From a virus (lineage: Duplodnaviria; Heunggongvirae; Uroviricota; Caudoviricetes), in IMG/VR virus record IMGVR_UViG_3300045988_153230: DNA of 49,189 nt. One strand, given 5' to 3'. The notes under the pieces are model-generated. The model saw only the letters and a list, made by a program, of their open reading frames with translations, searched no databases and was not told the origin of the DNA. The position numbers and the translations under genes are program-made. Shown piece by piece: positions 1,631 through 49,189 of this stretch; the first letter of the stretch is position 1, and every line of letters begins with the position of its first letter.

Positions 1631-2478
1631 TAATGTTGGAGTGATTTCCAGGTCTTTCTTAGCCTGTTATAACGCTGCTCAACGAGGGATCGTAAATATG
1701 CAAGGTCAGCACCAGGATACATGCCATCAGCAAATTCCTGGCTAACCTCTCTAGTGATTTGATGACGAAGTTCGGCCTCTCCCTTTTCCTGAACAAGACG
1801 CGCAGCTCTCTCCGCTGCTTTCTGTTTTGCCTTTATCTCTCTGGCCGTCTTCCTCTGACGCCATACATTCTCCATCTGCTCCTGAATAACAATACGCTTA
1901 TAATCAGCCTCCGTTATCGCTTTTTTAAGCCGTTCACTATTCTTCGCATTGAAGTAATTAAGTTTCTGGCTAACCGCACGTCTCCATGCTTGTTCAGTAA
2001 TACCAACGGTTTCCAGCAGTTGATCACGAATCTCTATTTTCGCTGGCCAATACTGTTTATTCACCCGATCCCAGCGACGTTCATAATCAATAAAACCTAA
2101 CGCTTTCAGTTGCGACAACGCCCTTGTACAGCGCGTTATAGACTTGTTCCCAGCTTCGGATACGGTAGACAGGCCGCAAAAATCAGCCAACGCCTCAGCA
2201 CTAGCCAGAACCCGCTTAGAAATGATGTTTACATGGTGCAAAATCGCAGCGATCACAGCATTAATCGCCCGACGACGATGCTCGTTTATCCGGCGCTTCC
2301 GCTCTGACGGTTGATTAACGTAGAACGCAACCTCACACGTAAGATCACGCCCATTAATGCGCTGTAAAGCATCAGATAACACCAGCGGCAGCTTGTGCGT
2401 ATGGTGCTTTGGAGGCTGGAACTCCGGCGACAAATTACAAACGTAAGCTGAACGTAGAGACGGCATTGGTCTATCCAT
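1630..2478 (-). CDS. repA: Plasmid replication initiator, IncFII RepA1-like
   Basis: Conserved core ...RRRAINAVIAAILHHVNI...FCGLSTVSEAGNKSITRCTRALSQLKALGFIDYE... and basic C-terminal region match my recollection of R100/R1 RepA1. ATG at 2478 chosen (MDRPMPSLRSAYV...); the ORF track extends to 2607 with no better start. Confidence 0.75.
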   Translation of the reverse strand: MDRPMPSLRSAYVCNLSPEFQPPKHHTHKLPLVLSDALQRINGRDLTCEVAFYVNQPSERKRRINEHRRRAINAVIAAILHHVNIISKRVLASAEALADFCGLSTVSEAGNKSITRCTRALSQLKALGFIDYERRWDRVNKQYWPAKIEIRDQLLETVGITEQAWRRAVSQKLNYFNAKNSERLKKAITEADYKRIVIQEQMENVWRQRKTAREIKAKQKAAERAARLVQEKGEAELRHQITREVSQEFADGMYPGADLAYLRSLVEQRYNRLRKTWKSLQH

Positions 2479-3433: not shown

Positions 3434-4420
3434 ACGGTAAACAGGGCTGGTAACGCCGTGCAAAAAAATGGCGATACCTTGTCCGGTGGGCTTACTTTTG
3501 AAAATGACTCAATCCTTGCCTGGATTCGAAATACTGACTGGGCGAAGATTGGATTTAAAAATGATGCTGATGGTGACACTGATTCATACATGTGGTTTGA
3601 AACAGGCGACAACGGCAATGAATATTTCAAATGGAGAAGCAAACAAAGCACCACAACAAAGGACCTGATGAATCTTAAATGGGATGCTTTGTATGTTCTT
3701 GTTAAAGCTCTTTTCAGCAGTGAAGTAAAAATATCGACAGTCAATGCACTGAGGATATTTAATTCATCTTTTGGTGCTATTTTTCGCCGTTCTGAAGAAT
3801 GCCTTCATATCATCCCTACCCGAGAAAATGAGGGGGAAAATGGCGATATAGGGCCACTACGCCCCTTTACGCTTAATCTCAGAACTGGTCGCATAACTAT
3901 GGGGCATGGTCTGGATGTTACAGGAGATATATTTACAAACCGTTTTTTAATTAACAGCAGTACAGGCATGTGGATTAATATGCGTGACCAGAACGTTATT
4001 ATGGGACGTAATGCGGTATCCACTGATGGTGCTCAGGCTTTGCTCCGTCAGGACCATGCCGACCGCAAATTTATGATTGGCGGTCTGGGAAATAAGCAAT
4101 TTGGCATCTACATGATTAATAACTCAAGGACAGCCAATGGTACCGATGGTCAGGCGTACATGGATAATAACGGTAACTGGCTTTGTGGTGCGCAAGTTAT
4201 TCCCGGCAATTATGGCAATTTTGACTCACGCTATGTGAGAGATGTCCGACTTGGCACACGTGTTGTTCAATTGATGGCGCGTGGAGGGCGTTATGAAATA
4301 GCCGGACACGCACTTACCGGATTAAGAATTATTGGTGAAGTTGATGGCGATGATGAAGCTATCTTTAGGCCGATACAAAAATACATCAATGGCACATGGT
4401 ATAACGTCGCACAGGTGTAA
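3408..4420 (+). CDS. Alternative tail-fibre C-terminal segment (Sv'-like), silent in this orientation
   Basis: Frame is open through the gix site and encodes LGLQETVN, the same peptide encoded at the gix site inside the tail-fibre gene (EYLGLQETVN). No own start; the ORF track's start at 3458 is GTG. Followed directly by a Tfa paralog. Confidence 0.7.
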
Positions 4421-27547: not shown

Positions 27548-28921
27548 CTACTTAATCAACGGCCGGAAAGCCGCCAGCACATCATCAGATCGTCCGATTG
27601 TTGAACCACCAGGCAACGGCAACTCAAACTCAAAACGAACAGCTTTCTCCAGACTCGCCCAACTAAGGGAATCATCGTTAATGACGTGCAAATACCAGCT
27701 CTTACAGTTGAATATTGACCGCTTAATCCTGAAACCATGTACACGACACAACTGCTTCACTTCCTCATCAGAGTGAAACTTCTGGTAAAACCAGTGCCCC
27801 TTCCGGTACAACGCGGTAAAACCGTTATGATCAATAAAATAAAGCCGGCTTTTGGAACTCGCCGCCTGTGTTTGCTTCAGGACTGTTTCCAGCTCTCCAC
27901 GGCTACGACCAGAAAAGAATATTGACCCACCAGCTTTACACAGGCCTTTCAGAACCGTCAGAACGGACCATTCAGCCTCGACACTATCGACCGAGTTCAA
28001 AACGCTATCGCAAATCACGTAGTCGTAACGCCCTCGCGTTTTTAAGTCATCCACCAGCGTATCAATCATCCGGTTTGTTGCGGTCCTATCCAGAGTGTTT
28101 CCAGCGCCCTTACGGCGGAAAAGCTCGAGATCATGCAGGTTATATCCCTTTGCCCTGAGCATTCGCGCGTAGTCTCCCTGCCCCGAACCAAAATCAATTC
28201 CTCTTGGCGTCTTGGCAATGATCGGGAGGATCAACGACTCATACAGATTTGATTTCAGGCTGCCACCATTACGCAACCGCATAAGCTGCGCATACGTCTG
28301 GATGTATGTTGTTTTCTCCAGATGAGAATACTCAAATACACCATAAGTTTTATTCAGATAACTTTGGTATTTTTCCTTCTCAACATCAGGGATCACAAAC
28401 ACCGTTAGCGGTGTGCGCGTCATCTTCGCTGCTAATGCATACTGAGCACAATGAATAACCTCACCAGACTGAGTAGCAACACAACCACCCCACGGACCAT
28501 ACTTGATAACCAGTTCCGCTATGTTCTTTCGAACATATGCCATTTTCGCGCGCATATTGCCTGAGATCTGGCTTGCCGATACCTGAACAAAACCATGCTT
28601 ATCTTCCAGACCGGACACCCTGCAACGCTCATCTCCGCTATCAAAATCCGTTCCGTTATGCAGTTGGTTAAACCGTACTTCGTCGTATACCGTCGTTTCA
28701 CAGGGCAACACATACACCGCAGCACGCGTTATTCCCAACTTACGTAGCGCCTTCGTCCTTTGGTGTCCCGCCACCAGCAAATCGCCGCGCACTATCAATG
28801 GCTTCACAAGCCCCAGCTCCCTGACGCTTTCCGCCAGCCTCGCAAGATCATCCTCACCGATAAAACGCGGGTTATATTCCGCGCCGCGTAGGTGCGTTAT
28901 GTCGTAATTCAGGTGAAGCAT
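27548..28921 (-). CDS. ParB-like domain fused to class I SAM-dependent methyltransferase
   Basis: N-terminal ...LGLVKPLIVRGDLLVAGHQRTKALRKLG... (ParB/Srx motif); C-terminal Rossmann MTase motifs GIDFGSGQGDYARML (motif I), acidic LHDLE, YDYVICDSVLNSV, LKGLCKAGGSIFFSG. No DPPY/NPPY motif, so not a canonical amino-MTase. ATG at 28921 overlaps the stop of the upstream ParB gene. Confidence 0.7.
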   Translation of the reverse strand: MLHLNYDITHLRGAEYNPRFIGEDDLARLAESVRELGLVKPLIVRGDLLVAGHQRTKALRKLGITRAAVYVLPCETTVYDEVRFNQLHNGTDFDSGDERCRVSGLEDKHGFVQVSASQISGNMRAKMAYVRKNIAELVIKYGPWGGCVATQSGEVIHCAQYALAAKMTRTPLTVFVIPDVEKEKYQSYLNKTYGVFEYSHLEKTTYIQTYAQLMRLRNGGSLKSNLYESLILPIIAKTPRGIDFGSGQGDYARMLRAKGYNLHDLELFRRKGAGNTLDRTATNRMIDTLVDDLKTRGRYDYVICDSVLNSVDSVEAEWSVLTVLKGLCKAGGSIFFSGRSRGELETVLKQTQAASSKSRLYFIDHNGFTALYRKGHWFYQKFHSDEEVKQLCRVHGFRIKRSIFNCKSWYLHVINDDSLSWASLEKAVRFEFELPLPGGSTIGRSDDVLAAFRPLIK

Positions 28922-32274: not shown

Positions 32275-32350
32275 TGGTGGCCCCTACCGGATTTGAACCG
32301 ATGACCGTGCGATTATGAGTCGCCAGCTCTAACCACTGAGCTAAGGGGCC
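32275..32350 (-). tRNA. tRNA with CAU anticodon (Ile2/Met type, ileX-like)
   Basis: Minus-strand sequence GGCCCCTTAGCTCAGTGGTTAGAGCTGGCGACTCATAATCGCACGGTCATCGGTTCAAATCCGGTAGGGGCCACCA folds by eye into acceptor, D, anticodon (loop CTCATAA) and T arms with encoded CCA; the 5' half matches E. coli ileX as I recall it. Confidence 0.85.
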
Positions 32351-43253: not shown

Positions 43254-43503
43254 GAGAAGGTGACGGCCTCCAGCGCCAACTGTTGGCCGTCGCGACACAA
43301 CAAGGGGAATTTGTTATGTCCGAGCAACAATATACACGGTTACTAAAAACTCGTCTAATAGACCTCAAACGGCTGCAAGCTGGTCGCTTATTTGCCCTGC
43401 TATCCACCAGGCCAGAATGGGTACGTGAAGCAGTTCTGAAAGGCTTAATGCGCTCAAGCGTTTAAATTCAACCATAAAAAAGGCCCCCGAAGGGGCCTAA
43501 TCG

Positions 43504-43626
43504 CTACTTGCTGCTAATGTTTATCGTCACATTCAGAGCGTTATCAGTAATCTTCCAACCCTCCCCATGTGGCGTAAACAAAGCTCCAGTAACAACGATA
43601 AAAATACACATGTAGTATTTTTTCAT
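43504..43626 (-). CDS. Small hydrophobic protein (40 aa), candidate type I toxin-like peptide
   Basis: ATG at 43626: MKKYYMCIFIVVTGALFTPHGEGWKITDNALNVTINISSK; a bidirectional hairpin (GGCCCCTTCGGGGGCC, ~43478..43500) follows on the minus strand. Confidence 0.4.
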   Translation of the reverse strand: MKKYYMCIFIVVTGALFTPHGEGWKITDNALNVTINISSK

Positions 43627-43940
43627 TGTGTGGCCCTTACAGGCCGTTTCACGGCATCCCCACCGACGAAAATGACGCGAGAGCAAGCACGCTGTTTGTG
43701 CCTGCGTGGTACGGCAAGTGGATAATCCTTTCCTGAAAGTCAGTGCCCGGGTGCGAATCGGCGGAAAGGCCCCAAGCCATATTACACGTCATACCCTTCA
43801 TAATGAAGGAATAAAAAACGCTTTTATTACATAAGATTACACGTAAATAAGTTAAAAACCTTCATTTTGCATGAGCTAATGAGCTAAATTTTTTTATATG
43901 AATAGTGGACTATTCACCTCAGTTGGGTAAGAATGTAGTT

Positions 43941-44044
43941 GCTGTTTGTGCTTGCGTGGTTGTATTAGTACAACGACGTTATGCTGAAAGGACCGCGAAT
44001 CCGATCAGCACGAAAGAACCGTCCTCAAAAGGACGGTTTTTTTG
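43941..44044 (+). ncRNA. Candidate small RNA with intrinsic terminator
   Basis: Begins with GCTGTTTGTGCTTGCGTGGT, a 19/20 copy of 43691..43710 (the putative 5' leader region of the small ORF on the other strand), and ends in hairpin CCGTCCTCAAAAGGACGG plus T7 (44019..44044). Confidence 0.35.
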
Positions 44045-44597
44045 TTTCTCCCCCTTCCTTCCCAAATGATTCAAATGTTAATGAGAGTGAATCATTTGAT
44101 ATGTTCGATTTAGCGCCGTTATCGACCCAATTTCTGTATGCTTCATCACAACAGTACCTTACAGCAGTTGGAGTAACAGGGATGCCGCCCCCAAATGAGA
44201 ATCCCATTGAGCTAATGCTAACTCTTTCGAATGGCCTATTTCTCAATGCTTCAAACCCCTTGCTATTAAAGTAACGCAGCATCAGAGGTAAAAGGTTATC
44301 CTCGTCCTGACTGATTGTTCCAGGGAAAAAGTAGTAACCATAACGGTTAAATTCGGGAATAAGATTTTCTACCAATGACATGAAATTCACTGGAGTAATA
44401 TTAAGGGCTGTGAAAGCACCAAAAAGGGCGTCAACTGTTAATACAGACTGCCCGTTCTCTATCTTTGTCCATGCGTTTGGTGTTTTTCCAGCAGCTTGAG
44501 CCAGCACTCCTTGATGCACACCTCTTTCTAGCCTAAGTTCTTTTATGATCATTAGGTGAATTGTTGAAAAACATGAGTTTTTTGACTGTTCAATCAT
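44025..44597 (-). CDS. HTH-domain protein with uncharacterised C-terminal domain
   Basis: 190 aa; N-terminal XRE-like HTH (...IKELRLERGVHQGVLAQAAGKTPNAWTKIENGQSVLTVDALFGAF...); C-terminal ~110 aa unrecognised. Confidence 0.55.
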   Translation of the reverse strand: MIEQSKNSCFSTIHLMIIKELRLERGVHQGVLAQAAGKTPNAWTKIENGQSVLTVDALFGAFTALNITPVNFMSLVENLIPEFNRYGYYFFPGTISQDEDNLLPLMLRYFNSKGFEALRNRPFERVSISSMGFSFGGGIPVTPTAVRYCCDEAYRNWVDNGAKSNISNDSLSLTFESFGKEGGETKKPSF

Positions 44598-45046
44598 TTT
44601 TTATCCCCATACTGAATTTTTTCTTGTTCCCGACTTTAACAAAATTCCACAACTCAGGACTGATTGATTCCCTACAGGAACTATACATTCCCATTTTTAG
44701 CATATCAAGAAAATTAAAAGCCCCGCATTCAAACCCACACTATGTGGTTTAGTCTGTTAAAATCCCTCTGTATTGACATAAATGCGCCATTGGTGGACAC
44801 TTTCCGAGCCGTAGCAAAATCTACGGTCGGGATTGGAACCCCGATAATCATCATGGCGCATACCGCGTTAGCGGTTTTTTTATGCGTAAAGCACTGCTAC
44901 ACCCAAATTATGGTGGGGCGTGCGGGGGAGTCGTAAGACTCGCCGGATTCCATGGTGACCGGTAGTTCCAACCCTGTACGTCTCACCACCCAATGATTGG
45001 AACCAGACGGTGGTGAGTATCCTTAACCTTTAAGGGAACTATCACC

Positions 45047-45238
45047 ATGACAAACTTACCCCATGACTATTACGTCAACCTCGTAAAGATCCTTCTCAAG
45101 AAAGCCTCATACGCCGATAAATTCCGCCTGGCTGAAATCATCGAGCGCGAAGCTATGCGCATCGCCAGCAACGATAACGCTGTTTCTGACGCAAAAATCT
45201 CCCTCGTAACCAAAGTAGTTATGGGAGGTGCAAAATGA
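45047..45238 (+). CDS. Hypothetical small protein upstream of antirepressor
   Basis: 63 aa, ATGA overlap with the downstream gene. Confidence 0.45.
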   Translation: MTNLPHDYYVNLVKILLKKASYADKFRLAEIIEREAMRIASNDNAVSDAKISLVTKVVMGGAK

Positions 45239-46416
45239 AAACGCTTCCGACCGTTAACACCCTACAGCCTATCCTGCATAACCAAATCCCCGTTATCACT
45301 ACTGAACTACTGGCAAAGCTATACGGCACAGACGTTGATAACATCAAAAAAAATTACTCACGTAACGCAAACCGCTTTATTGAAGGAAAGCATTTTTTCA
45401 AAGTGGCTGGCGATGAGTTAAAAACTTTGCGAGTGACTTTAAGTCACTCACAAAATTTGCGACTGGTTTTAAACGAGTCACAAAATGAGGTGCAAATTTC
45501 CCCCAAAACTCGCTCTCTCATCCTCTGGACAGAACGCGGGGCTGCACGTCACGCCAAAATGCTTGAAACTAACCAAGCGTGGGATGTGTTCGAACGGCTG
45601 GAAGACTGCTACTTCAACCAGAACGCGCAAACGGCCGCGACCGTTACCGTCTCGCCAAACAATGCTCGTGAGGTTGTCGATACGCTCAACGCCAAACCGA
45701 TGTTTTACATTAAAGTGTGCAACAACGAGCCACTCACAACCTCAGCCGATGTTGCCCAGGCATTCAGCACCACAAACAATTCCATCGTTATGGCCATCGA
45801 TGCGCTACGCATTCCTCGCACGGCTGCGGCGCGTCACTTCTTTAAAGAGCAACGACCGCTGGAAGGAAGCGACCGCGAAATAACAATCTATCGCATGACA
45901 AAAGACGGATTTACCTTACTCATGGAGAGCATCGACGGTCCAAGCGTGAAAGATATCAAGCTGGCCTACATTGAAGCCTTTAACGCTATCAGCAGCGTGT
46001 TAAAAACACAGTACGAGCGTGATCTGGCTAAACGACTGTACCAGGAAAAAACGATTATCCGCGCGGCAACAGAGCATAATCGGCTATTAACGGAACCGAA
46101 CTACAGGAAGGAACTAATCAAGGAGTTTGACAAGGCAACAGGGAAAACCAAAGCGGCGCTAAATCTGCCAGCAATGACTCAGGAAAATGTGATATCAGCC
46201 TTACTTCTTGATCTGCTCAGAAACGCCAGAGCACTGATCAGCTTTGACGAAAACCTGAATCCTCAGCTCAAGCTACTACCACCGACAGGCAAAGTAGTCG
46301 ACCAGGCAGATCACAACAGCATACTCAGCGTACTGGATGCAAACCTACCAGCCAGGACACTACAGGAACTGATAAAGATATCGGCGGATAAACTGGCCGC
46401 AGGTGCAAAACCATAA
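45235..46416 (+). CDS. Antirepressor-like protein (ORF6N and Rha-like domains)
   Basis: 393 aa; N-terminal ...PVITTELLAKLYGTDVDNIKKNYSRNANRFIEGKHFFKVAGDELKTL... (ORF6N-like) and central ...NAKPMFYIKVCNNEPLTTSADVAQAFSTTNNSIVMAIDAL... (Rha/antirepressor-like). Confidence 0.65.
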   Translation: MKTLPTVNTLQPILHNQIPVITTELLAKLYGTDVDNIKKNYSRNANRFIEGKHFFKVAGDELKTLRVTLSHSQNLRLVLNESQNEVQISPKTRSLILWTERGAARHAKMLETNQAWDVFERLEDCYFNQNAQTAATVTVSPNNAREVVDTLNAKPMFYIKVCNNEPLTTSADVAQAFSTTNNSIVMAIDALRIPRTAAARHFFKEQRPLEGSDREITIYRMTKDGFTLLMESIDGPSVKDIKLAYIEAFNAISSVLKTQYERDLAKRLYQEKTIIRAATEHNRLLTEPNYRKELIKEFDKATGKTKAALNLPAMTQENVISALLLDLLRNARALISFDENLNPQLKLLPPTGKVVDQADHNSILSVLDANLPARTLQELIKISADKLAAGAKP

Positions 46417-48601: not shown

Positions 48602-48901
48602 TCAGATGTTAAACGCTATTCGTTTTCCTGTGGGAAGCTCAACATCCAGGCTTAATTTGCCTCCCATAGCTTCAACGTAACGCTTTAATGTCGCCAGCTT
48701 TAAATCATTTCCGCGCTGCTCCAGCTTTGTTACTGCTGGCTGGCTTATACCCATCGCCTCAGCAACCTGTTTTTGTGATAACTGGAGTTCTTCACGCATC
48801 ATCTGCAAGCCGACCTCAAGAATCATCTCATCTGCCATTTCTTTAATTCGCGCCTGGCTTTCCGGTGAACGGCTGGCAATCGCCTCATCTAATGTTCTCA
48901 T
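48602..48901 (-). CDS. HigA-like antitoxin (XRE-family HTH)
   Basis: 99 aa; ...LQLSQKQVAEAMGISQPAVTKLEQRGNDLKLATLKRYVEAMGG...; ATG overlaps the stop of the upstream toxin gene by 1 nt (toxin-first order as in higBA). Confidence 0.7.
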   Translation of the reverse strand: MRTLDEAIASRSPESQARIKEMADEMILEVGLQMMREELQLSQKQVAEAMGISQPAVTKLEQRGNDLKLATLKRYVEAMGGKLSLDVELPTGKRIAFNI

Positions 48902-49189
48902 TACTTGCTCTCCAGTGTGTTCAGATGTGCTGCAAACTCATCCTCAGCTATACGCACCAGTTTTTCATAAAACCGCTTATCGTTACTTTTGTCTCCTGCA
49001 CAAAGAACGATGGCCCGGCGAATCGGATCGAACGCATAAAAGGCTCTTATCGGACGGCCAGAAAACTGAACGCGAAGCTCTTTCATATTTTTGTACCGAG
49101 AACCTTTTACGGTATCGGCATATGGCCTGGGTAACTCAGGTCCGTAAACCTGTAGCTTTTTCAAATCAGCCAAAACCTTTTCCTGAAGA
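48901..49189 (-). CDS. RelE/ParE-superfamily toxin, Gp49/HigB-like; 5' end cut by window edge
   Basis: ...GPELPRPYADTVKGSRYKNMKELRVQFSGRPIRAFYAFDPIRRAIVLCAGDKSNDKRFY... matches the Gp49-like addiction-module killer pattern. The true start lies beyond 49189; the homologous left-end copy suggests the N-terminus MWTVLFSQRFDDWLNEQEDALQEKVL... Confidence 0.75.
   Translation of the reverse strand, partial: LQEKVLADLKKLQVYGPELPRPYADTVKGSRYKNMKELRVQFSGRPIRAFYAFDPIRRAIVLCAGDKSNDKRFYEKLVRIAEDEFAAHLNTLESK

Follow-up and report, generated by a model that had tools for sequence, protein, structure and literature searches.

A leader RNA of the IsrK type and an antisense RNA of the C4 type precede the antirepressor operon of a phage-plasmid

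Introduction

Does the non-coding stretch upstream of the antirepressor operon of this phage-plasmid harbor a new type of RNA control, or one that is already known? The whole stretch of DNA that we analyzed (49,189 nt, hereafter the window) belongs to a myovirus-like phage-plasmid of roughly 49 kb. From the letters alone, three features had previously been picked out between 44597 and 45046, namely a TTGACA −35-like element, a terminator-like hairpin with a T-run, and an inverted repeat, and an antisense/processing-type control had been proposed after the examples of P1 c4 and P22 sar. In P1, the 5′ end of C4 is made by RNase P, and the RNA is excised from the operon transcript and acts in trans. 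The P1/P7 immI locus was reportedly described by Citron and Schuster in 1990 as a c4 antisense RNA followed by icd and ant1/2. The RNA of N15 has been reported to act via transcription termination and not via translation, and sar of P22 is a cis-antisense transcript from the opposite strand that overlaps the ribosome-binding site of ant. P1 C4 blocks ant expression (PMC8198154, PMC12197685), and IsrK has been equated with seqA and C4 with CI RNA under the name “IsrK-C4 immunity system” (PMC3632133).

Here, we report that the stretch upstream of the antirepressor genes holds two already catalogued phage RNAs, a leader RNA that resembles IsrK and an antisense RNA of the C4 type, which most likely hold the antirepressor off. 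Taken together, the three features are the known IsrK–C4 RNA immunity module (P1/P7 c4, N15 immA, P4 seqA–CI, Gifsy-1 IsrK); the locus is a clear new example of this system and not a new type of control.

Results

The operon opens with orf63, a leader ORF of 63 codons from the ORF list (45047..45238, + strand) that occupies the position of icd, the gene for a cell-division inhibitor in P1. Its stop codon overlaps the start of the antirepressor gene ant (45235..46416, + strand, 393 aa) in the sequence ATGA at 45235..45238, and ant is preceded by a Shine–Dalgarno (SD) sequence of its own, GGAGG at 45224..45228. Judging by its matches to Pfam ORF6N (1e-20), Pfam Phage_pRha (1.5e-12), and PHROG anti-repressor families (up to 4.5e-60), the ant product is an antirepressor homologue. 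Compared with a Salmonella plasmid, orf63 displays 22 nucleotide differences, 17 of them at third positions, and five amino acid changes, and it matches phrog_7886, a family of unknown function. We rejected its identification as Icd: BLASTP yielded no alignment to P1-like Icd or N15 gp31, and NF033153 gave no match, while a P1-like control scored 48.4 bits. What orf63 shares with P1 icd is only the position and the overlap with ant.

On the other side of the region lies a divergent gene for an XRE-type helix-turn-helix (HTH) protein (44025..44597, − strand, 190 aa), whose promoter-like site (44708..44680, − strand) overlaps two 18-nt repeats (44655..44692) and points away from the operon. The gene resembled N15 cA and was considered as the repressor of the module. 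Since it is missing from two relatives (L003 and L004) that keep the identical isrK promoter, we treat it as a neighbor that is probably not part of the module.

The first of the two RNAs, 74 nt in length (44808..44881, + strand), matches the Rfam isrK family RF01394 over its full length (model positions 1-77; 70.2 bits against a gathering threshold of 50, E = 4e-13) and also overlaps RF03163 c4-a1b1, although with 38.2 bits this second match stays below the cut-off of 46.7. The isrK-type layout of two 5′ hairpins and an intrinsic terminator is present: hairpin 1 (44808..44827, + strand) is followed by hairpin 2 (44828..44843, + strand), which exposes the box b1 UUGGAAC (44833..44839, + strand) in its loop, and the box a1 UCAUCAUGG (44848..44856, + strand) ends 5 nt 5′ of the stem of the terminator ACCGCGTTAGCGGTTTTTTT. 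The latter is the terminator-like hairpin of the original prediction, which we recovered at exactly the predicted position (44862..44881, + strand); our scan called a stem at 44862..44875 with five pairs, four of them G–C, and the T-run behind it. The IsrK-like RNA has a minimum free energy (MFE) of −23.0 kcal/mol (z = −1.9), and its helices covary among 81 relatives.

The probable promoter of the module (44773..44801, + strand) combines the TTGACA −35 element, which lies at 44773..44778 and thus one nucleotide to the left of its predicted position at 44774..44779, with a 17-nt spacer and a weak −10 element GACACT (44796..44801). The latter ends 6 nt 5′ of G44808, the first base of the isrK match and the putative transcription start. 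Because this −10 element is poor, a consensus promoter scan did not call the site, and we therefore infer the assignment from position and homology: Five family members share an unchanged segment between −35 and +1, the Salmonella plasmid diverging just upstream, and distant relatives as well as N15 carry a TTGAC-type −35 and a TATAnT or TAGAGT −10 element at an equal distance from the isrK start. A candidate operator in the promoter, the 17-mer GCGCCATTGGTGGACAC, was discarded, as a search of the window that allowed up to three mismatches yielded no further copy; nor was a convincing dyad found over the promoter.

Downstream of the terminator, and on the same strand behind the one promoter that it would share with the operon, the segment 44906..44993 (+ strand) matches the C4 family RF01695 across the entire model, with all 87 positions covered (1-87) and a score of 84.3 bits (gathering threshold 45, E = 3e-15). 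The analogy to P1 c4 is thus borne out by a bona fide C4-family RNA upstream of the ant operon. However, the parts had been assigned differently: The short terminated RNA made up of promoter and hairpin is the IsrK-like leader with the decoy or target sites a1 and b1 and not the antisense repressor, whereas the true repressor C4, located 3′ of the terminator, had been missed. The mature C4 is predicted to span ~44911..44988, with ends placed by homology. It comprises a closing stem of 17 bp (44911..44927 with 44972..44988), hairpin 1 (44928..44941), and hairpin 2 (44942..44963), all on the + strand, with the box a′ CCAUGGUGA (44950..44958, + strand) in the loop of hairpin 2 and the box b′ GUUCCAA (44965..44971, + strand) in the junction. 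Its MFE of −43.7 kcal/mol (z = −4.7) was reached by none of 200 shuffled sequences. In the relatives, pairing in the closing stem reaches 99.7%, and 7 of its 17 pairs have been changed on both sides, as have all five pairs of hairpin 1; none of 500 shuffles attained the observed values. Over 81 relatives, the canonical structure is 96.5% paired and contains 24 pairs changed on both sides (0 of 500 shuffles); slid out of register as a control, it drops to about 40%. The ORF list contains no + strand ORF of at least 30 aa that covers 44906..44993, and the frame starting from the ATG at 44910 stops after eight codons.

A search for complementarity between the putative RNA and the operon leader, as proposed with the original prediction, uncovered two duplexes of C4. 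Its box a′ pairs with a2 UCACCAUG (45042..45049, + strand; −12.5 kcal/mol), which includes the AUG of orf63 (45047..45049) and follows a likely SD sequence AAGGGA (45032..45037, + strand), and its box b′ pairs with b2 UUGGAAC (44997..45003, + strand; −8.5 kcal/mol). For the same boxes in the IsrK-like RNA, the energies amount to −12.2 kcal/mol (a) and −8.5 kcal/mol (b). The composite TTGGAAC..TCAYCATG occurs exactly three times in 49 kb, always at this locus, where 0.01-0.02 copies are expected. An additional GGAAC near a2 (45034..45038) can also pair with b′ in the window; we treat it as coincidental because it shows no covariation in the relative YpM_41.

The boxes covary in three places, that is, in C4, in the IsrK sites, and in the leader sites, across 114 unique related loci. 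The complement of b′ is found at the b2 position in 97 of these loci, compared to 3 of 2394 comparisons with other specificity types, and b′ is complementary to b1 in 88 of the 114 versus 1 of 2394. In the correct register (slide +1), b′–b2 pairing amounts to 98.1% and includes 56 double changes; b1 and b′ are paired in 99.1% of the cells with 57 double changes (0 of 500 shuffles). In 81 of the 114 loci, a2 offers a′ a complementary stretch of 7 nt or more, compared to 6% in cross-locus controls, and the loci carry 40 distinct a2 strings; within the family, a′ and a2 co-vary as CCAUGGUGA/UCACCAUG, UCAUGAUGA/UCAUCAUGA, and GUCAUUGUG/CACAAUGAC. The resulting specificity table lists 22 b′ types, 10 of them with matching b1 and b2, and 40 a2 types. 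The same pattern is evident at close range: The window and YpM_41 are identical in the DNA of orf63 but differ in the a and b boxes, which are changed coherently in all three places, and no fewer than four or five specificity types are found within the phage-plasmid family on almost the same background.

We consider the region non-random because of the two Rfam matches above gathering threshold, the threefold occurrence of the composite site, and the strong covariation in relatives. Simple scans do not exceed chance by themselves (seven terminator-like sites in contrast to 3.2 expected), and we therefore used homology and covariation as evidence. These data also bear on the idea of a sar-like cis-antisense transcript or a plain attenuator, in which no RNA would act in trans and the hairpins would merely be terminator and leader structure. 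Such an arrangement would suit a terminator-like hairpin between promoter and operon and matches the proposed analogy to P22. Yet all elements lie on the + strand and communicate via short complementary boxes, the scan detected no promoter-like site on the minus strand of 44880..45100 (the only minus-strand site, at 44708..44680, points away from the operon), each of the two RNAs matches a curated family, and the three-way covariation of short boxes is inexplicable by a local attenuator; we hence regard this explanation as extremely improbable. The core of the original idea, a small antisense RNA of the processed type, was right, since the loops of a C4-family RNA are complementary to the operon leader and the start codon.

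The reading that we hold to be probable is that an IsrK–C4 RNA immunity module controls the orf63–antirepressor operon, with C4 blocking translation of orf63 and ant and IsrK serving as a decoy. All parts would be transcribed from one rightward promoter (−35 at 44773, start at ~44808). Most transcripts would stop at 44862..44881 and yield the 74-nt IsrK-like RNA, while read-through transcripts would run on into the C4 gene and the operon. From these, C4 (~44911..44988) is probably cut out, as P1 C4 is by RNase P, and its exposed boxes a′ and b′ would pair with a2 and b2 on the mRNA, whereby pairing over the start codon of orf63 would bar ribosome entry. Since orf63 ends inside the ant start, and by analogy to icd–ant, the loss of orf63 translation should also stop antirepressor synthesis, and the main repressor of the prophage would consequently stay active. 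The IsrK-like RNA with its second copies of the boxes (b1, a1) is most likely a decoy or anti-antisense RNA that competes for C4, and it may also let C4 affect termination; the ratio of terminated to read-through transcripts together with C4 stability would then set the state. RNA family membership, structures, complementarity within the window, and three-way covariation in relatives are direct observations, from which the transcription start, termination efficiency, C4 processing, and RNA stability are extrapolated, as are the translational block, the orf63–ant coupling, and the decoy role. Two properties of the leader complicate this scheme: ant has a good SD sequence of its own, so that its dependence on orf63 translation is not assured, and a2 and the SD sequence of orf63 are predicted to lie within a local hairpin, so that C4 would need to open this structure first and translation might already be limited by cis folding alone. 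The weak −10 element and the lack of homology between orf63 and Icd likewise speak against the scheme.

Alternatively, C4 might shut off the operon mainly at the level of transcription, as in P4 and N15: Processed C4 would pair with a1 and b1 on the nascent RNA, and with a2 and b2, and would thereby stop RNA polymerase, either at the terminator of IsrK or at some Rho-dependent site. Several observations are in line with this mode. Only 5 nt separate box a1 (44848..44856) from the terminator stem; compensatory variants are visible in a helix across the U-tract and would point to structural selection on the terminator region, although a crude contiguous-pairing test did not separate this helix from controls; and N15 immA, with the same isrK plus C4 layout, is reportedly under the control of a small processed RNA (Ravin et al. 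1999, cited in PMC4488713 and PMC3632133). For P4, the C4-type CI RNA is reported to act on transcription termination by pairing with seqA and seqC (PMC4825925). However, a2 covers the start codon in the window family and the SD sequence in most relatives, a placement that is needed for a translational block and unnecessary for termination, and P1 C4 is described as a blocker of translation (PMC12197685). We thus see termination as a possible but rather doubtful main mode; the two modes are not exclusive.

The third predicted feature, the inverted repeat CTCACCAC/GTGGTGAG, is real but located at 44982..44989 and 45010..45017 instead of ~44965..45010, and it is no free-standing hairpin: Its left arm belongs to the stem that closes C4, as the 3′ strand, and pairs alternatively with a downstream element. 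This putative switch element GGUGGUGAG (45009..45017, + strand) has two mutually exclusive partners. In the first option, it pairs with CUCACCACC (44982..44990) from the closing-stem 3′ strand, and the resulting 9-bp hairpin (44982..44990 with 45009..45017; −16.8 kcal/mol, z = −2.4) carries b2 in its loop; in the second option, it pairs with AUCACC (45041..45046) and encloses the SD sequence. Compensatory variants exist in N15 (GCUACCACC/GGUGGUAGC), in P1-like loci (CCUGCCACC/GGUCGCAGG), and in IMG/VR loci. For the first pairing, at least seven of nine positions are Watson–Crick matches in 113 of 113 loci, a figure for which the types are too similar to separate own from other pairings and the reversed-sequence control is uninformative; because this cross-type test gave no clean separation, we rely on the individual compensatory variants. 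The read-through leader as a whole has two near-isoenergetic conformers (−99.5 and −100.4 kcal/mol), one of which forms an SD/AUG hairpin, and as long as the downstream part has yet to be transcribed, a1b1 and a′b′ are paired in cis in the MFE fold.

The C4 stem, b2, and the ribosome-binding site are thus connected by a conserved chain of mutually exclusive helices. This is the less expected finding of our analysis. Tentatively, the leader could be an attenuator-like switch of four segments, the C4 5′ arm (1), the C4 3′ arm CUCACCACC (2), GGUGGUGAG (3), and AUCACC beside the AUG (4). Pairing 1:2 gives the mature-type C4, pairing 2:3 displays b2 in a hairpin loop, and pairing 3:4 buries the SD sequence; folding or excision of C4 would by itself lock the ribosome site, and capture of the nascent C4 boxes by IsrK would open it. 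If this were true, with IsrK as a dedicated C4 sponge, the module would be a self-contained, all-RNA bistable switch. Concerted changes at three sites re-program its specificity, and this one phage-plasmid family has no fewer than four or five types.

The same folds are compatible with a mode that is limited to activation, in which the C4-like stretch would be a structured leader and never a separate RNA, and the short IsrK-like RNA would open in trans a read-through mRNA that cis folding keeps translationally silent. It follows the experimental model for Gifsy-1, in which IsrK binds Hfq, forms pairs with the downstream region both in cis and in trans, and trans-activates translation of the antirepressor via an upstream ORF, and in which the co-expressed C4-like region was not a simple repressor that IsrK can titrate (PMC4825925). 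Both the SD/AUG hairpin and the early cis pairing of a1b1 with a′b′ would fit. On the other hand, the window lacks a counterpart of orf45, given the early stop in the frame from ATG 44910; the tRNA-like stability and strong structural covariation of C4 are what one typically sees in an RNA that stands alone; even Gifsy-1 yields a processed species that is stable, STnc1160 (PMC4825925); and the covariation of a2 and b2 with a′ and b′ would be needless if IsrK acted alone. We therefore judge pure activation to be unlikely and favor the IsrK–C4 module with C4 as repressor.

Discussion

Our analysis reveals a so far unannotated RNA-based secondary immunity in the ~48-50 kb phage-plasmids of E. coli, Salmonella, and Yersinia, a widespread family that includes a plasmid of the E. 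coli reference strain ATCC 25922. At the module region, the records give only “hypothetical protein”, and some CDS starts (YpM_41, N15 gene 32) have been called inside the C4 RNA. Heteroimmunity types of the P1/P7 kind arise here when three short boxes are exchanged in concert while the DNA around them stays identical, and the specificity types predict which co-resident or superinfecting relatives would induce each other via the antirepressor. Our comparison provides a table of IsrK–C4 specificities that can be used as it stands, and the conserved chain of alternative helices is a testable pointer. The general picture of how such systems work is unchanged by this locus.

Among the known systems, P22 sar resembles the module in that a small RNA limits antirepressor synthesis, yet sar is encoded on the opposite strand, whereas the elements in the window share one strand without a promoter-like site on the minus strand of 44880..45100. 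P4, according to published descriptions (PMC3632133, PMC4825925), is a structural homologue with the order seqA – CI RNA (seqB) – seqC, in which the boxes that a processed RNA pairs with lie on either side of the gene encoding it; its output, however, is premature termination of replication-gene transcription and not the control of an antirepressor.

Gifsy-1 of Salmonella (IsrK – orf45 (STnc1160) – anrP – isrJ; Hershko-Shalev et al. 2016, PMC4825925) likewise has an isrK-family RNA with its own terminator, read-through into the antirepressor mRNA, pairing of the middle of IsrK with a downstream C4-like region, and coupling of antirepressor expression to an upstream ORF; the Gifsy-like Salmonella phage that we examined contains the same boxes. 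In contrast, the C4-like stretch is read as a 45-codon ORF in Gifsy-1, while the window has a separate 63-codon ORF after C4; the antQ link is specific to the lambdoid prophage, and our Rfam search found no isrJ downstream in the window. The Gifsy-1 “helix b-I” is probably equivalent to the a1b1/a′b′ pairing, and our comparison supports the reading of “orf45” as a C4 RNA. We also tried to map the Gifsy-1 mutations G28/G31 and C159/C162 onto b1 and b′; the Gifsy-like phage SW-37 differs in length.

N15 is also a phage-plasmid, and its anti-immunity locus immA is reportedly controlled by a small processed RNA (Ravin, Svarchevsky & Dehò 1999). Its Rfam matches to isrK (62.4 bits) and, immediately behind it, C4 (78.8 bits) precede an operon of a small ORF and an antirepressor, and it contains a1/b1, a′/b′, and a2/b2 together with a GGUGGU switch element in N15-specific, mutually compensating sequences. 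The differences concern the downstream proteins, which are AntA, Icd, and AntB in N15 (PMC4488713), the location of its a2 on the SD sequence, and the replicon: The window has a circular relative with ParA, whereas N15 is a linear plasmid with a protelomerase.

From the immI locus of P1 and P7, the window differs in several respects. The carrier of a1 and b1 fits the isrK model and not c4-a1b1 (38.2 versus 46.7 bits), a2 lies on the start codon and not, as in P1, on the SD sequence, the leader ORF is no Icd homologue, the antirepressor combines ORF6N with Rha, in contrast to the KilAC-domain antirepressor annotated on the P1-like plasmid, and the element itself is an unrelated, myovirus-like phage-plasmid of 49 kb. 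Nevertheless, the antisense RNA belongs to the same family (84.3 bits for RF01695), and the order on one strand is the same, from a1/b1 via C4 with a′/b′ to a2/b2, a small leader ORF, and an overlapping antirepressor gene; the P1-like plasmid that we examined shows c4-a1b1, C4, icd, and ant in this layout. In both systems, short boxes set the specificity and differ between similar phages, as in the heteroimmunity of P1 and P7.

An unannotated IsrK–C4 module precedes the antirepressor operon

The region upstream of the antirepressor operon is a previously unannotated IsrK–C4 (c4-type) antisense immunity system. An Rfam search of the whole window at curated thresholds returned two adjoining same-strand matches within it: isrK (RF01394; 44808..44881; 70.2 bits, cut-off 50), followed by the C4 antisense RNA (RF01695; 44906..44993; 84.3 bits, cut-off 45). 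The original prediction of an antisense or processing-type control was right in kind and wrong in detail: the terminator that it proposed forms the 3′ hairpin of the IsrK-like RNA, and one arm of its inverted repeat belongs to a stem of C4. The hairpin ACCGCGTTAGCGGT with its T-run was placed exactly (44862..44881) and is also called by a terminator scan, which with 7 terminator-like sites against 3.2 expected is by itself not above chance. The predicted TTGACA −35 element exists one base away, at 44773..44778, and is placed as expected for a promoter of the IsrK-like RNA, the −10 element ending 6 nt before the first base of the isrK model; a consensus promoter scan did not call this promoter because its −10 (GACACT) is poor. 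The repeat CTCACCAC/GTGGTGAG is also present, at 44982..44989 and 45010..45017 rather than ~44965..45010, and its CTCACCAC arm provides the 3′ side of the 17-bp stem that closes C4. The predicted folds reach −43.7 kcal/mol (z = −4.7) for C4 and −23.0 kcal/mol (z = −1.9) for the IsrK-like RNA.

A complementarity search between the RNA and the operon leader, as originally suggested, revealed that C4 carries two boxes, a′ (CCAUGGUGA, 44950..44958, loop of hairpin 2) and b′ (GUUCCAA, 44965..44971, in the junction preceding the 3′ arm), which are complementary to a2 (UCACCAUG, 45042..45049, including the AUG of the leader ORF orf63) and b2 (UUGGAAC, 44997..45003) downstream. The IsrK-like RNA holds the same boxes as the target: b1 (44833..44839, loop of its hairpin 2) complements b′, and a1 (UCAUCAUGG, 44848..44856) complements a′ with one G·U. 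Throughout the window, the composite TTGGAAC…TCAYCATG occurs only at the IsrK and leader sites, with its reverse complement in C4 (expectation ~0.01–0.02). A third GGAAC lies immediately 5′ of a2 (45034..45038), so that 45032..45049 complements a′ and b′ of C4 together, leaving just the hairpin 2 CCGG bulged; this match is confined to the b type of the window and does not covary in Yersinia phage vB_YpM_41.

The boxes covary across relatives

Family membership, structure and complementarity of both RNAs are accompanied by covariation in a sample of four family members, a P1-like plasmid, an Stx2a phage, a Klebsiella phage, APSE-2, a Gifsy-like Salmonella phage, N15 and ~200 IMG/VR loci retrieved by patterns drawn from the conserved C4 5′ arm. 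The order isrK (c4-a1b1 in the P1-like plasmid) then C4 recurs in 8 of the 9 loci of one Rfam scan and in N15; the Gifsy-like phage SW-37 yielded C4 and isrJ only, with no isrK at the Rfam threshold. When 81 sequences are aligned, 96.5% of the canonical structure is paired and 24 of its pairs have changed on both sides, a level reached by 0 of 500 shuffles; slid controls are ~40% paired. Over 114 unique loci the boxes show three-way covariation: a complement of the b′ belonging to the same locus stands at a fixed spacing downstream in 97 and upstream in 88, one of another b′ type in 3 of 2394 downstream tests and 1 of 2394 upstream. Pairing amounts to 99.1% for b1–b′ (57 double changes) and 98.1% for b′–b2 in the correct register, the MAFFT alignment having set the window row one column off. 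Downstream complements of a′ spanning 7 nt or more are present in 81 of 114 loci against 6% in cross-locus controls, and a2 takes 40 distinct strings among the 114.

Two annotated coding sequences begin inside C4, namely 1693..1980 of vB_YpM_41 (locus L001; C4 at 1647..1734) and N15 gene 32 (28082..28372 of locus L130; C4 at 28301..28388), and both starts are probably annotated too far upstream; Gifsy-1 'orf45' presents the same ambiguity. An ALIL pseudoknot (RF01497, 120.9 bits; 4049..4165, minus strand, of locus L006) ~2 kb downstream of the module in the Stx2a phage Stx2_131990 presumably marks an IS3-family insertion sequence.

Predicted alternative helices near the ribosome-binding site

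The second arm of the predicted repeat, taken as GGUGGUGAG (45009..45017), has two possible partners. Together with the C4 3′ arm it can form a 9-bp hairpin that presents b2 in the loop (−16.8 kcal/mol); together with AUCACC (45041..45046) it can form one that encloses the Shine–Dalgarno sequence (SD) and directly adjoins the AUG (−16.0 kcal/mol). In the read-through leader, the conformer with folded C4 and the SD hairpin (−99.5 kcal/mol) and the alternative (−100.4 kcal/mol) are nearly isoenergetic, with pair probabilities of ~0.57 and ~0.41. The first pairing is preserved through compensatory changes in several lineages: N15 (GCUACCACC/GGUGGUAGC), P1-like loci (CCUGCCACC/GGUCGCAGG) and IMG/VR loci (CCGCCACC/GGUGGCGG, CCAUCACC/GGUGAUGG, CCACCGCC/GCGGUGG). 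Of 52 distinct leaders, 38 are predicted to form the second; controls with the 12 nt before the AUG shuffled average 1.7 bp. As the segments vary little, statistical support for this chain of helices is moderate, and a literature search of limited reach found no published description. The chain suggests the hypothesis that C4 maturation is structurally coupled to opening of the ribosome site.

A further helix, GCGCAU/AUGCGU (44855..44860 with 44882..44887), flanks the IsrK terminator across the U-tract and could form only in read-through transcripts, because its arms bracket the terminator. Relatives carry compensating versions (GCGAC/GUCGU, GGCG/CGUC, CGCAC/GUGCG), which a crude pairing test did not cleanly separate from controls.

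Operon genes and genomic context

The 63-codon orf63 (45047..45238) overlaps the antirepressor gene ant (45235..46416; 393 aa; own SD at 45224..45228) in ATGA; the product of the latter contains both an ORF6N and a Rha domain and matches anti-repressor families of PHROG. The reading frame orf63 is a real gene: 17 of the 22 differences between it and its Salmonella plasmid copy fall at third codon positions. Its identity with Icd is ruled out: it aligns neither to the P1-like Icd nor to N15 gp31, and the Icd-like NCBIfam model, which hits the P1-like control, does not hit it. Gifsy-1 orf45 has no equivalent here, as an ATG in the C4 5′ arm meets a stop after 8 codons. The divergent XRE-type HTH gene (within 44025..44708, minus strand; 190 aa, C-terminal part without assigned function) probably lies outside the RNA module, because it is absent from two relatives with the same promoter (L003 and the Salmonella plasmid L004). 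Two 18-nt direct repeats CAGGAnnnATnnATTCCC (44655..44672 and 44675..44692), both containing a GGA..TCC dyad, overlap the promoter-like site of this gene (44708..44680) and may form an autoregulatory operator.

The 2.4 kb around the module are 92–100% identical to a family of ~48–52 kb non-mobilisable plasmids from E. coli, E. albertii, Salmonella and Klebsiella and also match Yersinia phages vB_YpM_39, 41 and 44 (circular genomes, ~49 kb). Because its kin include these circular phages and pATCC25922_4, annotated with terminase, portal, capsid, contractile-tail, baseplate, ParA and toxin–antitoxin genes, the window is a myovirus-type phage-plasmid. It also carries a tRNA-Met gene (anticodon CAT; 32275..32350, minus strand) and, at its end, a HigB/HigA-like pair (RelE/ParE toxin and HTH antitoxin; 48602..49173, minus strand). 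The interval from the ParA operon to the HTH gene holds a full-length ryfA-family RNA (RF00126, 134.6 bits; 43476..43774, minus strand), inside which there is a small hydrophobic ORF (within 43504..43686, minus strand). The locus, which resembles an addiction system of type-I toxin/antitoxin style borne by the phage-plasmid, is present in relatives L001–L003 and absent from L004.

Proposed mechanism and relation to known systems

The module has the anatomy of P1 immI. In P1, C4 is derived from the operon's own transcript and pairs via a′/b′ with a2/b2, blocking ribosome binding at the first ORF, and antirepressor synthesis drops along with first-ORF translation (PMC8198154, PMC12197685, citing Citron & Schuster 1990). 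By analogy, we infer that transcription would start at the first base of the IsrK-like RNA, near 44808, and that C4, processed from the operon's own transcript, would pair with a2/b2 and block ribosome binding at orf63; antirepressor synthesis would then fall too, provided that ant, despite its own SD, is translationally coupled. The position of a2 differs: it covers the start codon itself in the window's family, whereas in most relatives it covers the SD. In Gifsy-1, the central part of IsrK base-pairs with the region downstream of it both in cis and in trans, and antirepressor translation rose >100-fold when IsrK was provided in trans (PMC4825925). On the simplest interpretation, IsrK would act as a decoy, competing for C4 itself or for its portion of the precursor. 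Control of termination, of the kind described for P4, may be at work alongside this competition; a1 ends only 5 nt before the terminator stem.

To a specialist, the IsrK–C4 identity of the region is unsurprising. Barquist et al. described an 'IsrK-C4 immunity system', in which IsrK corresponds to seqA and C4 to the CI RNA of P4, and noted similar systems in P1, P7 and N15 (PMC3632133). The worth of the finding lies in the annotation, the candidate helix-switch and the heteroimmunity types within one phage-plasmid family. This family displays at least four or five box combinations, with b of type GAAC or GCGU and a2 of type UCACCAUG, UCAUCAUGA or, in several lengths, CACAAUGA. The window and vB_YpM_41 have identical orf63 DNA and boxes that differ at all three positions, which is the same pattern as in the heteroimmunity of P1 and P7.
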